A stretch of DNA of 63,987 bases, counting the filler, from Fonticula-like sp. SCN 57-25 (Eukaryota), in the NCBI GenBank assembly GCA_001724245.1. It is 6 parts of 6 records of this genome, joined end to end, with 100 filler letters (N's around TTAATTAATTAA, not from the genome) between each part and the next. Parts side by side here need not be neighbours in the genome. Positions count along the whole stretch, not along the records: positions 1 to 11,156 come from MEDX01000232.1; 5 more parts are not named here. One strand, 5' to 3'. Below the pieces are notes generated by a model that saw nothing but the letters and a program-made list of their open reading frames with translations, did no database searches and was not told the origin of the DNA. A program made the position numbers and the translations under genes. How positions within the stretch are numbered: position 1 is the first letter of the stretch; each line of letters opens with the position of its first letter. This document shows positions 1 through 54,805 of this stretch, piece by piece.

Positions 1-2526
1 GCGTCCTCTTCGCCCTGCTCGAGGGGCACTTCGACCACAGGCAAGTCAAATTCAATATCACGCAGCCCGCCCAACATTGACGTAAACACAAAAAACTGGT
101 CGCGCATGGCCATAATTGCAAATGGATAATACCCACGTGGCCCCTCTGAAGTGTGCACGTGCCACAGCGTGTGCGTCAGCGAGCCGCGTGTAAGCGCCAG
201 CCGCAGCCAGCACGCCACGAAAAAGGCGTCATCGGGCTTGGGGCCGCACGTGGCCTTTAGCTGGGCAAGCTCGTCGGCGGGCATGTGCGCGGCGAGCAGC
301 GGCCGAAGAATTGTCACGCGGCGGCCAAAGAGGCCAACAAGGGACTCGCAAAGGCCGTGGCGGAGAACAAGTTCAATGCGCTCGAGGAGCGCGCGCGTCG
401 ATTCGTCGCAGCCAGTCAGCTTACGAAGGGCGGCGGCCACGTGGGGGGTAGAAGTGGAAGAGGGGCCGAGGCTGCGCAGTTGGACGCGCGTGATGGCGTG
501 CTGGAGTTCGTTGAGGAGGACGGGGCGGATGCTCTGCTCGCCGACGAGGAGGCGGCGAAGTGACGCCTCGGTCGACCGATGAAGCGACAAAGTAGTATTA
601 GAAGTAGTATTAGTAGTAGTAGATACAGGAGTAGTAGATGCAGGTACTGATGTAGGTACTGATGCAGGTACTGAATCAGGGGTAGAATCAGGTGATATAG
701 GTACTGATGCAGGTACTGAAGTAGTGTCATGGTCATCTGATGCAGGTACTGGTACTGAAACTGATGCTGAATCAGCAGAATCAGAAGCAGCATTATTATC
801 ATTACCAGTATTGCCGGATGATTCATGCAAATCAGATTGCACATTACTCTTTGCCTGGTCCATTCTGCTGAGCACTGACGCGTTGACGAGCGGCGCGACC
901 GACTGGAAAACGGCCATCGCGGCGAGCGACGTGAGCACCTGCGGAGCCCTTTCGGGCTTTTCTCCCGCCGCCGACGCCGCCGCCACGTGGGTGTTGAGCA
1001 GCACAAACTGCTCCTTTGGCTCGACCGCTTCGTCCGCCAGCACAGCATCGTCCGTTTCGTCTTCGAGCCGCACGCTGCTCAGCGCACCAATCGCAAGCGC
1101 TAGGCGGTACTTTCGCGGGCCAAATGCGCGCACGAGCGGGTCCTGCTGCAGCGGCTCAAAGTAGACGCGGTGCGGCGTCACGACGAGCACGCCGCGCACG
1201 GGGCCGTCGCTCGTGAGCAGCCAGCAGAGGTCCTTGCGACGCACGGGGACGACGCGCGCAATGCCGGGGGCGGTCGACGTGCGCGGCGACGCGTACGGCG
1301 CAATTTCCGCCGCGGCGGAGCGCGCTTTTTCAGACGCGTCGGCGGAAGCGTCAAAGTCGTCGTCAGAGTCGTCCAGGGTGTCGGCCGCGAGCAGCGTTGA
1401 TGAGCTGCCGGCGCGCAGCGGCGGCGCGCGCGGAGAGTCACTCACGGTGAAGGGGCAGCGCTTAATGGCCGCGACGCTGCGCCGCCACGCGTCAAAGTCG
1501 TCGGCGTCGCGCACGAGAAAGCCGAGCAGCACGGAAGGGTCAATCGCGTCGGCAGAGACGCGGCGGGGGGAAGTGCAGTGGTAACTGCCGAGCTGATCCT
1601 GCGTGCACGTGCGCGGGTCGGCGTCAAGGGAGGGCTGCGTGCGGTGGGGGTCGAGGCACAAAAAGGAGCCGTCGGCGTCAACGCCAACAAAATGCATCGC
1701 CTGAAGAGCGCGCTATAATTAAAAAGGCGTCAGTTCTGGACCACAAATACCAAAAATGGCGCACCAGGCGCTTGACGCCGAGGCCCGCGCCGAGCATGGT
1801 GGCGAGCGGCGAGCCTGGCTTCCCGCCTGCAAAGCCGATTGTCTGCGGGAGCGCAAGCATTGCCTGCAATATCGGGATGTACGCCGGGTTGAGTTCGATG
1901 CCGAGGCGCAGCGGCAGGAGGATGATGACCGACGACGACCCGCCGGCAAAAGAGAACTTTATGTCGCTCGCGTACAGCGTTCCGTCGCTGCCGACGACGC
2001 ACCCAATGTCGCGCGGGCTGTGCTTGTTGACGAGCGCCGCGAGAATGTGCGCCAGCGAGCTCGGGCCGTGCCACTCGCCAATGGGCGTCTTGAGCGCCTG
2101 GCCGATCTCGGCCATGTTGTGGAGCGAGTAGGGGGCGCTCGAGATCTTTGCGTCCTGGAACCACGATAGAATCGTCTTGTACGTCATGAAAGAGTCGGGA
2201 AGCGCCTCGTTCTCCGCAAGGCCCCACTTGTCGCCGAGAAAGACGCGGAAGAGCGCCTCGCACAGCATCATCTGGCCCGCGCGAAGCATGCAGCCCCAGC
2301 CAGAGTCGGATGTCAGGCGAGCGGGGCCAAGGGGGGGGAAGTTTTTGCGGTACGTGAACCAGCCGCGAGAGTGGAGGTGGACTCGCAGGCGGTGGCGGCT
2401 GCGCGCCTGCTCGTCACTCGAGGACGATGTGTCGAAAAGGCCGCCGGGCGGCATCGGCGAGTAGACCGTGCCCAGCACGACCGCCCGCGGAGGCTCGCCA
2501 GACTTTGGCGCACCTCGCGATGCCAT
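1..2526 (-). CDS. ATG4: ATG4 cysteine protease (peptidase C54) with a long in-frame C-terminal extension (GRAM-like segment, S/T/P linker, RUN domain); 3' end runs off the window
   Basis: Exon 1 (ATG ~2526 to 1765) has WFTYRKNF, TSDSGWGCMLRAGQMML, GEWHGP and GFAGGKP. Intron runs from 1764 to 1713 or 1701 (GTGCG..AG, phase 0). Exon 2 encodes AMHFVG..LCLDPH..SYHCTSPRRV..IDPSVLLGF and stays open to position 1. Confidence 0.9.
590..780 (-). repeat. Low-complexity coding repeat (TCAGTACCTGCA-like and ACT units) encoding a SVPA/T-rich linker in the ATG4 fusion
   Basis: Repeated gcaggtactgat and agtagt units on the + strand; no stop codon in the ATG4 frame. Confidence 0.75.
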
Positions 2527-2832: not shown

Positions 2833-3542
2833 ATGTTTGTCCGGCCACTGCTTCGCGTCGCGCCTTCCATGTTTAGGAGCACTGCTGTTGCCTGCAAGCC
2901 TGGTGCGTTCTTTGCCGCTTTTTTACGCTCTCTTTTTATCGAATTTCTAATGTCTTTTTGGTGCCGATAGCTGGCGCGCTCGCTGTCCGCCATGCGGCAA
3001 CCGCCACGGTTGATGCCGCTGCCGGTGCGCCTTTTCGGCCAATTATTCTCGCTTGTTCTGACCGTCTTTTTGTGTCTAGTTGCCGGTAAGAGCAAGATGC
3101 ACGGCTCGTACCACTGGCTCACCGAGCGCGGTACGTTTTTCCTTTCCCTTGCCCCTCTCCCCTTGTCCGGCGCCATGGCTCACGTCATGCCTGCCTGCAG
3201 CGCTCGCCGCCTCGCTCGGCGTTCTCATCCCGGCCGCCATCTGGATGCCGTCGACCCCCGTTGACTATGCCCTCGGCCTTGTTCTCCCGCTCCACGCCTA
3301 CCTCGGCCTCATGGTGCGCATCCCCACGGTCATATTACCGCCCTATGCTGACTTTTATGCGCGCGCGTGTCTAGTGCGTCGTCACAGACTACCTCCCGAA
3401 GCGCCGCTCCCCCGGCATGTACATGGCCGCTTCGACGACGGTCCGCCTCGTTTCGTTGCTCGCCGCCTATGGTTTCTACGAGATGAACGCCAACGACATT
3501 GGCTTTTCCAATGCCGTGAAGCAGACCTGGAAGGCGATCTAA
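2833..3542 (+). CDS. SDHD: Succinate dehydrogenase cytochrome b small subunit (SDHD/Sdh4/Tim18 family), 5 exons
   Basis: Mitochondrial presequence MFVRPLLRVAPSMFRS; motifs HGSYHWLTER, DYALGLVLPLHAYLG, VVTDYLP and NDIGFSNAVKQTWK; short GT-AG introns. Confidence 0.9.
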
Positions 3543-3830
3543 TAGGAGAAGCCAGCGAAAGATGGACATTGTGAATGCATTTGAACGACGAGATAAGAAT
3601 AAATGAATATGTTGTAGTTTTTTGTTGGTTCAAGCTTTAAGCATGGGCGCTATCATTTAGAGCGTTGGACTTTTGAGTTGTGCGTAGTAATGTGCTCTAT
3701 AGAGTGCTTTAAGCAGCACAGAGTAATGCCTATTGTTTTAATAGGGTGCTCCACATAGACGCCTATTCGCTTGTGTGTCCAGAGTTTGGTCATAAATAAC
3801 GCTATCGCAGTTCATTTACAAACGCAACAA

Positions 3831-4598
<768 letters not shown>

Positions 4599-11156: not shown

Positions 11157-11256
11157 NNNNNNNNNNNNNNNNNNNNNNNNNNNNNNNNNNNNNNNNNNNN
11201 TTAATTAATTAANNNNNNNNNNNNNNNNNNNNNNNNNNNNNNNNNNNNNNNNNNNN
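11157..11256. other. Artificial contig linker (N44-TTAATTAATTAA-N44)
   Basis: Six-frame stop spacer between N runs; identical at five positions. Confidence 0.99.
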
Positions 11257-21767: not shown

Positions 21768-21867
21768 NNNNNNNNNNNNNNNNNNNNNNNNNNNNNNNNN
21801 NNNNNNNNNNNTTAATTAATTAANNNNNNNNNNNNNNNNNNNNNNNNNNNNNNNNNNNNNNNNNNNN
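21768..21867. other. Artificial contig linker
   Basis: N44-TTAATTAATTAA-N44. Confidence 0.99.
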
Positions 21868-32069: not shown

Positions 32070-32169
32070 NNNNNNNNNNNNNNNNNNNNNNNNNNNNNNN
32101 NNNNNNNNNNNNNTTAATTAATTAANNNNNNNNNNNNNNNNNNNNNNNNNNNNNNNNNNNNNNNNNNNN
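32070..32169. other. Artificial contig linker
   Basis: N44-TTAATTAATTAA-N44. Confidence 0.99.
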
Positions 32170-42329: not shown

Positions 42330-42429
42330 NNNNNNNNNNNNNNNNNNNNNNNNNNNNNNNNNNNNNNNNNNNNTTAATTAATTAANNNNNNNNNNNNNNN
42401 NNNNNNNNNNNNNNNNNNNNNNNNNNNNN
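42330..42429. other. Artificial contig linker
   Basis: N44-TTAATTAATTAA-N44. Confidence 0.99.
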
Positions 42430-53552: not shown

Positions 53553-53730
53553 GCTCCTGCAAAGGCGCTGCGGGGTTTATTGTGCCGATGACGCTCCTCT
53601 CTTTCGAGTGTTGGGGCTCATCGCACACTAGCCTGCGTTCTCTGTAGTTGCATTTTGTATATACTATCCGAAATACTATTCTTTGATTCTTNATTAATGA
53701 CAAATACATAAGAGTGTTTTGGTTGAAGAT

Positions 53731-54705: not shown

Positions 54706-54805
54706 NNNNNNNNNNNNNNNNNNNNNNNNNNNNNNNNNNNNNNNNNNNNTTAATTAATTAANNNNNNNNNNNNNNNNNNNNNNNNNNNNNNNNNNNNNNN
54801 NNNNN
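54706..54805. other. Artificial contig linker
   Basis: N44-TTAATTAATTAA-N44. Confidence 0.99.

Follow-up and report, generated by a model that had tools for sequence, protein, structure and literature searches.

The stretch of DNA analysed here, referred to as the window, comprises 63,987 nucleotides of Fonticula-like sp. SCN 57-25 (assembly GCA_001724245.1) and consists of six parts of six genome records joined end to end, with filler letters between them. Its first 2,526 nucleotides hold, on the minus strand, a predicted gene for the autophagy protease ATG4 that runs off the window at base 1. The encoded protein does not stop where canonical ATG4 proteins end. Instead, the frame very probably continues into a C-terminal extension that is made up of a putative PH-GRAM-like segment, a linker rich in S, T and P and a predicted, divergent RUN domain. 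The features of the locus are collected in Table 1.

The gene is divided into two predicted exons. Exon 1 ends, at position 1765, with the residues ...GFAGGKPGSPLATMLGAGLGVKRL, and exon 2 begins at 1712 and extends beyond base 1. From 1712 to the window edge, the frame (1712..3) holds 570 codons and no stop, in good agreement with an earlier note on this DNA, which had claimed about 565 open codons after an intron at 1764-1713/1701. Among the 24 listed frames of at least 300 amino acids (aa) in the 64-kb window, four stop-to-stop frames reach at least 570 codons. Past the ATG4 domain, the same frame stays open for a further 580 codons or so. Beyond the edge it is continued by a database open reading frame (ORF) of 666 aa, P0003, which has been seen on two contigs, is identical to the window across the shared part and adds 101 codons before a stop. 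Judged from sequence, this brings the predicted protein to a length of about 925 aa.

The two exons are separated by an intron whose unusual donor, length class and acceptor match both introns of the nearby ribosomal protein L10 (RPL10) gene. Read by eye, these have GTGCGT and GTGCGC donors, lengths of about 53 and 62 nucleotides (nt) and TAG acceptors; by this sequence comparison, the 52-nt intron is of the usual type of the genome. An alternative acceptor at 1701 would likewise keep the frame, with a difference of four residues only (RALQ). As the loop encoded at the splice site has 22 residues in the relatives described below, compared to 23 with acceptor 1713 or 19 with acceptor 1701, the former fits slightly better. 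Contigs of run X1 cover only 663-939 and 1189-1627 of the gene. At position 1319 they carry T where the window has A (plus strand), changing Ser to Thr in the linker after the acidic patch, and because of this one-base difference X1 is probably another strain or allele.

Table 1. Predicted features at and next to the ATG4 fusion gene; positions count along the window.
Feature	Position	Strand	Basis or remark
Exon 1	1765..2526	minus	ATG at 2526; 254 aa, N-terminal part of ATG4; translation, Pfam
Intron	1713..1764	minus	52 nt, GTGCGC...CTGAC...TATAG
Family-specific insertion of about 18-23 aa after GGKP (SPLATMLGAGLGVKRL + RALQA)	1698..1818	minus	Interrupted by the intron
ATG4 C-terminal lobe	1428..1712	minus	Pfam Peptidase_C54; start of exon 2
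Acidic patch TLDDSDDDFDAS	1344..1379	minus	Site where canonical ATG4 proteins end
Putative PH-GRAM-like segment	978..1247	minus	Conserved core CWLL..VYFEPLQQDPLV at 1226-1131
86-codon S/T/P/D/N-rich island	591..848	minus	In frame, within the linker; G+C at third codon positions (GC3) 0.08
Predicted divergent RUN domain	21..530	minus	Core 398-33: LLERIELVLRHGL, ACWLRLALTRGSL, YYPFAIM, MLGGLRDIEFDL
Start of acidic/His-rich tail	3..32	minus	ORF runs off the window and continues in P0003
Succinate dehydrogenase small subunit gene	about 2836-3545	plus	Divergently transcribed; last exon 3375-3542, Pfam CybS 45.5 bits
RPL10 gene	about 3831-4586	minus	Pfam Ribosomal_L16; two introns with GTGCGY donors

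The protease is complete. Both of its parts score above the Pfam cut-off for Peptidase_C54 (PF03416; 25 bits), with exon 1 matching at 188.5 bits over profile positions 5-203 and residues 4-78 of exon 2 at 58.3 bits over positions 203-275. Because the profile continues from 203 to 203 over the splice, the catalytic domain is rebuilt exactly across the intron. The catalytic Cys is found in GWGCMLR (2301-2281) and the catalytic Asp and His in LDPH (1655-1644), so that all members of the triad read by the earlier note from GWGC and LDPH have been located. The motif GEWHGP, with the conserved Trp, lies at 2079-2062. A relative of the protein, P0004, aligns with human ATG4B (PDB 2cy7) over both catalytic motifs, and through this alignment the acidic patch falls at the end of human ATG4B. 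This bears out the claim that the frame passes such a patch at the point where ATG4 normally stops. Thus, like human ATG4A-D and yeast Atg4, the protein has a full C54 domain, the Cys/Asp/His triad, the Trp of GEWHGP and an acidic stretch at the position of the ATG4B tail. It differs from these canonical ATG4 proteins by some 580 extra C-terminal residues with the PH-GRAM-like and RUN modules, and by an insertion of 18-23 aa after GGKP. By analogy, the protease would be expected still to prime (process) and delipidate Atg8.

The fusion is also found in other organisms. Among 61 proteins listed as long relatives of the ATG4 N-terminus, one, P0004, is annotated with both Peptidase_C54 and RUN. 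P0004 is the best match of the 61; it is 830 aa long, 44% identical and encoded on a metagenome contig of 2752 bp. A second relative, P0066 (906 aa, on a contig of 3204 bp), was found by searching with the extension of P0004, and its 90% cluster has one more member, of 918 aa. In P0004 and P0066, each of which is one uninterrupted ORF, the order is the same as in the window: C54, GRAM-like segment, linker and RUN. P0003 aligns with P0004 in one unbroken stretch that covers the C-terminal lobe of ATG4, the acidic patch and the GRAM-like segment (E 3e-23). As the same order occurs in single ORFs of organisms whose proteins are 23-44% identical to that of the window, read-through or an assembly chimera is very unlikely. 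It is highly probable that the fusion is real and conserved, in line with the in-frame fusion of ATG4, GRAM-like segment and RUN that had been put forward for this DNA.

The earlier note had also held the architecture to be undescribed, and here no description of an ATG4-RUN or ATG4-GRAM fusion was found among the papers listed by literature searches and no named protein with this architecture among the 61 listed relatives. The closest named ATG4 proteins among these are at most 38% identical. RUN is present in one of the 61 listed long relatives. The extension is not shared by the other long ATG4 proteins listed, since a profile of the family matches four of the 66 proteins collected, and these four are the family and the window's own pieces. 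Judged from sequence, a well-known enzyme is seen here in an architecture that is real, conserved and rare. Many of the listed relatives are ATG4 proteins of 600-1900 aa with long extensions without a Pfam domain.

One other ATG4 with an added domain of the PH superfold was met among the relatives. P0015, a protein of 627 aa from a marine protist transcriptome, has a PH domain (37.3 bits) together with C54 (310.8 bits). Here, the PH domain lies at the N-terminus, RUN is absent and no similarity to the extension of the fusion family is seen. On these sequences, putative lipid-binding additions to ATG4 have arisen more than once.

Other searches with the extension recovered little. A word-based search returned the protein's own ORF only, among 8000 scored candidates, and scans of metagenome contigs and viral contigs with the family alignments gave no locus. 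An exhaustive phmmer search did not recover P0004 or P0066. One of its matches, P0065, a tandem-repeat protein of 1340 aa, was judged spurious.

The RUN domain forms the C-terminal part of the extension, where a helix, IRPVLLNELQ (530-501), precedes the core. Its identity is established by transitive homology through the two relatives. Over the full Pfam profile of RUN (PF02759; cut-off 22 bits), P0004 scores 58.2 bits and P0066 67.9 bits, and the window's segment is in turn significantly similar to theirs. BLASTP aligns it with the RUN region of P0004 at E 3e-4, and in Smith-Waterman comparisons with both relatives it scores 62 and 64, compared to shuffle maxima of 41 and 44 (none of 500 shuffles reaches the real scores). 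In addition, a profile built from P0004 and P0066, with the window left out, scores the segment at 7.8 bits, the best of 300 shuffles reaching -0.6. On this sequence evidence, the second segment of the extension, which had been called a RUN domain from its hallmarks, is one with considerable confidence.

Further information on the type of RUN came from solved structures. A profile of all three family sequences matches the RUN domains of PLEKHM1 (8jc5, E 5.4e-17) and PLEKHM2 (8jca, E 5.5e-9) in the PDB, as well as RUFY3/RPIPx, Rab6IP1 and FYCO1; six solved RUN chains are found at E <0.001. Both 8jc5 and 8jca are presumably complexes with Arl8b. The ESM Atlas, queried with residues 395-666, returned RUN clusters by features, with 181 shared features and a score of 0.87 that counts as a lead only; by structure, template-modelling (TM) scores of 0.50-0.58 were obtained to RUFY4, PLEKHM2, SNX29, RUFY2 and PLEKHM1. 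Given the profile matches to solved RUN domains, the shuffle tests and the ESM Atlas results, the segment is read as a divergent RUN domain, and by sequence it is closest to the PLEKHM1/PLEKHM2 type among solved structures. It differs from PLEKHM1 and PLEKHM2/SKIP, the best matches of the family profile, in being C-terminal on an enzyme and in the absence of PH or C1/RH domains. The window's RUN also lacks a TFWP-type block that is present in those of P0004 and P0066. A conserved C-terminal tail, suggested by a MAFFT alignment, was rejected: its profile score is -4.3 bits, and its Smith-Waterman scores of 17 and 19 are reached by 1433 of 2000 and 864 of 2000 shuffles, respectively.

The PH-GRAM-like segment is the best-conserved part of the C-terminal extension. 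The profile of P0004 and P0066, again without the window, scores it at 35.1 bits, with the best of 300 shuffles at or below -0.1. A model made with AlphaFold2 (AF2) from a three-row alignment reaches a predicted local distance difference test (pLDDT) of 83-86 at model residues 21-60 only, and this confident part consists of three strands, short helices and a fourth strand. When the model was compared to known structures with VIA, a search independent of Foldseek, the PH-GRAM domain of MTMR2 came first (Z 5.5, root-mean-square deviation 2.6, 73 residues), and nearly all further matches were of the PH superfold. The ESM Atlas, queried with residues 125-300, gave GRAM clusters by features, at a score of 0.87 that is labelled a lead only. 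By structure, it gave four NCOA7/OXR1 clusters at TM 0.55-0.62 by query, in a region labelled PF30805, with the GRAM domains of myotubularin (0.53) and BAGP1 (0.50) below them. PF30805 is absent from the results of the Pfam scans of the fusion protein. On balance, a PH-GRAM-like fold is moderately favoured for this segment.

The earlier note had gone further and proposed a GRAM segment of the OXR1/NCOA7 type, possibly linked to the V-ATPase. The first half of this proposal stands in part, since profile, fold and language-model results, each of them weak, agree on a PH-GRAM-like segment; its Pfam scores, given below, are under the cut-off, and the likeness to OXR1/NCOA7 comes from one tool. That likeness, in which the ESM model of residues 125-300 aligns to the PF30805 region of these proteins, is a lead from one language-model and structure look-up, and the membership of the segment in their family is putative. 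The fusion protein differs from OXR1 and NCOA7 in having neither LysM nor a TLDc match (Pfam, E up to 1); for TLD, no match was found at E up to 1 in P0001, P0003 or P0004. In the excerpted text of PMC12146697, the GRAM domain of OXR1/NCOA7 is described as a phosphoinositide binder, and binding to the A subunit of the V-ATPase is a property of the TLDc domain. As the V-ATPase is bound by a domain for which no match was found, the proposed link has no basis here. The motifs on which the two segments had been recognised are present, and they lie slightly inside the approximate ranges first assigned to them: the CWLL..DPLV stretch is at 1226-1131, and LLERIELVLRHGL..MLGGLRDIEFDL at 389-42.

In addition to the extension, the loop beside the active site is enlarged in the family. 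All three members carry an insertion straight after GGK(P), and it is conserved in P0004 (residues about 226-246) and P0066. In the alignment of P0004 with 2cy7, it appears as 18 residues after GGK-x-N, at a point where human ATG4B has a short loop only. Counted from D278/H280 in the same alignment, the site of insertion lies between N261 and S262 of ATG4B, which we take to be the regulatory loop of that enzyme. In the window gene, the intron sits inside this insertion. The available excerpt of PMC5799747 states that, in free ATG4B, the regulatory loop and Trp142 cover Cys74, and that LC3 lifts the loop. The enlarged loop may add a further gate on activity.

The linker between the PH-GRAM-like and RUN segments contains an island of distinct composition. 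Its GC3 of 0.08 contrasts with 0.70-0.85 in all other parts of the gene, and it is built in part of 12-nt tandem units. The island sits in the part of the linker that is variable and cannot be aligned with the relatives. No other copy was found in the window when it was considered as a dispersed repeat, and it is the sole such island among the window's 57 frames of at least 200 codons, save one that is caused by a run of N. The island can also be read without a stop in other frames on both strands, such as 416..1078 on the minus strand and 583..1164 on the plus strand, so that openness alone is no proof of coding. An X1 contig spans the boundary at 848, covering 789-939. The best guess is that the island is an in-frame insertion, derived from a minisatellite, in a linker that tolerates changes of length. 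Whichever origin holds, the downstream frame is kept.

Taken together, these features suggest a multidomain ATG4 of about 925 aa that carries a built-in membrane address, a statement which, as a whole, is given slightly more credence than doubt. The protein would be laid out as the C54 domain and acidic patch, followed by the PH-GRAM-like beta segment, a long, disordered S/T/P-rich linker, the divergent RUN and a short acidic/His-rich tail. In the proposed mechanism, the RUN and PH-GRAM-like modules would together serve as the address. The partner of the RUN would be a small GTPase in its GTP-loaded state (Arl8, Rab or Rap type), and that of the PH-GRAM-like segment a lipid or protein of the membrane. 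Acting together, the two modules would concentrate Atg8 deconjugation on one endomembrane; the likeliest candidates are the late endosome, the lysosome or vacuole, and maturing autophagosomes. This targeting mechanism is argued from analogy and is credible, although tentative, with doubt weighing a little more than belief.

A model for the working principle is RavZ of Legionella, and the PH-ATG4 fusion P0015 is a further parallel. As set out in the portion of PMC5799747 that is available, a domain that binds phosphatidylinositol 3-phosphate (PI3P) takes this deconjugase of phosphatidylethanolamine-linked Atg8 (Atg8-PE) to autophagic membranes. RavZ, like the proposed fusion enzyme, joins an Atg8-PE deconjugating cysteine protease to a separate domain that binds a membrane lipid. 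It differs in being an unrelated bacterial effector that cleaves irreversibly and at another bond. The analogy is one of mechanism and not of descent, and a relation in sequence was neither looked for nor found. Known ATG4 proteins, according to the same partial text, are essentially single-domain and rely on short LC3-interacting region or Atg8-interacting motif (LIR/AIM) sequences (PMC5799747). The resemblance of the RUN to those of PLEKHM1 and PLEKHM2 suggests an Arl8-type GTPase as a candidate partner; in its accessible part, PMC10852212 presents PLEKHM1 as an adaptor for autophagosome-lysosome fusion that binds Arl8, Rab7, LC3 and HOPS. A more specific and speculative form of the proposal, for which the chances are modest, can be built on this. 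Here, the ATG4 would be an effector of an Arl8-type GTPase of lysosomes or late endosomes, which would act in coincidence with the PH-GRAM-like segment as a lipid reader. The enzyme would strip Atg8 from vacuolar or lysosomal compartments and from single-membrane compartments (non-canonical Atg8ylation), and the enlarged loop would keep it off until it is docked.

An open question in autophagy research is at which membranes, and at what time, ATG4 takes off Atg8. The fusion suggests that some eukaryotes hard-wire delipidation to a membrane that is defined by a GTPase and a lipid. If the GTPase-addressed deconjugase is real, eukaryotes would have their own equivalent of the RavZ design, one that could serve as a natural tool with which to study where delipidation happens. 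The modules could also be transplanted to steer ATG4 activity experimentally.

Several results weigh against a multidomain, membrane-addressed ATG4. The family, as sampled, amounts to three 90% clusters, and the exhaustive phmmer search with the extension found nothing real besides the extension itself among 1.84 billion representatives. The window's own RUN scores 19.1 bits (E 0.0015) over profile positions 68-129 of 131 only, below the cut-off of 22 bits. Searched alone against PDB sequences, it found no RUN structure and three unrelated matches (E 0.69-1.3). The AF2 model of the 666-aa ORF, made from a three-row alignment, has a mean pLDDT of 34.4, shows helices only at 363-544 and is too poor for a fold search. 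For Pfam GRAM (PF02893; cut-off 23.6 bits), the score is 14.3 bits with the whole protein and 16.9 bits with the region alone, both below the cut-off, in a weak match that covers GVLVVTPHRVYFEP; for P0004 and P0066, Pfam GRAM gives no match at E up to 10. In the GRAM-like model, confidence is limited to about 50 residues, which make up the first half of a PH-like fold. Foldseek gave no PDB match to this model at E <=0.001; its top rows include MTMR2 PH-GRAM, PH-BEACH, BBS5 and Lam6, none better than E 0.19. The Z of 5.5 from VIA is within the range that the tool calls common. Direct Pfam scores below the cut-offs, fold-search scores in a non-specific range and ESM scores of 0.87 that are leads only are what would be seen if the likeness to RUN and GRAM were convergent or spurious, the segments being lineage-specific folds with an unrelated role. 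This is very improbable, as both relatives exceed the RUN cut-off by a wide margin, the window's segment is significantly similar to theirs and four independent, though weak, lines of evidence (Pfam, the feature and structure results of ESM, and VIA) agree on GRAM. Still less probable, to the point of being nearly dismissed, is an artefact of the gene model, in which ATG4 would stop close to the acidic patch, with a GRAM/RUN gene of its own following in the same open frame. GC-rich DNA does yield long accidental open frames. Against this, the relatives have the same order in single ORFs on short contigs that hold little else, the alignment is continuous from the ATG4 C-terminus into the GRAM-like part, GC3 is 0.80-0.82 through the junction region and, by eye, there is no stop, GTGCGY donor or start context between the domains.

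Two further explanations accept that the domains are fused. In one, the extension is real, but it is regulatory or scaffolding in nature and does not serve as an address; it would keep the enzyme autoinhibited until a partner binds, or would make it a PLEKHM1-like tether or adaptor that carries a protease. The family-conserved insertion at the loop beside the catalytic site speaks for this, as does the fact that, in free human ATG4B, the same region covers the catalytic Cys (PMC5799747, in the excerpt available). The closest solved relatives of the RUN, PLEKHM1 and PLEKHM2, are also multivalent adaptors. On the other hand, no sign of an intramolecular contact was seen, in a whole-protein model too poor to show one, and long disordered linkers between domains suit independent modules; this explanation is considered unlikely. 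In the other, the protein is shorter than the ORF, because the island or part of it is an unusual intron, a recent insertion or an insertion made in assembly, with the GRAM-like and RUN segments still fused. The island does show that part of the linker has an unusual history, and it could be an in-frame intron or an insertion; this counts as a further point against the protein as predicted. Its GC3, its uniqueness among the long frames of the window and the frames left open on both strands by its repetitive make-up fit such a history. Read by eye, it also contains in-frame GT..AG pairs, the candidate excisions including 847-647 and 842-567. These are unlike the introns of the genome: the window's three introns are 52 to about 62 nt long with a GTGCGY donor and YAG acceptor, whereas the candidates have GTAATG or GTGCAA donors and a CGAG acceptor and span 201-276 nt. 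Moreover, the island is exactly 86 codons long, an identical ORF is called on two other contigs, the boundary at 848 is bridged by an X1 contig of the type that differs from the window at 1319, and the variability of the linker in relatives indicates that insertions are tolerated. A shorter protein is thus the less probable of these two and is rather improbable.

The genes next to the fusion gene are housekeeping genes, and the RPL10 gene that served for the comparison of introns lies about 2 kb away. Runs of N occur at 11157-11256, 21768-21867, 32070-32169, 42330-42429 and 54706-54805, in the form of five pairs of 44 N with 12 bases between them. The pairs are about 10-12 kb apart, and their appearance is that of masking or scaffolding and not of biology. 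A lone N is present at 53692.

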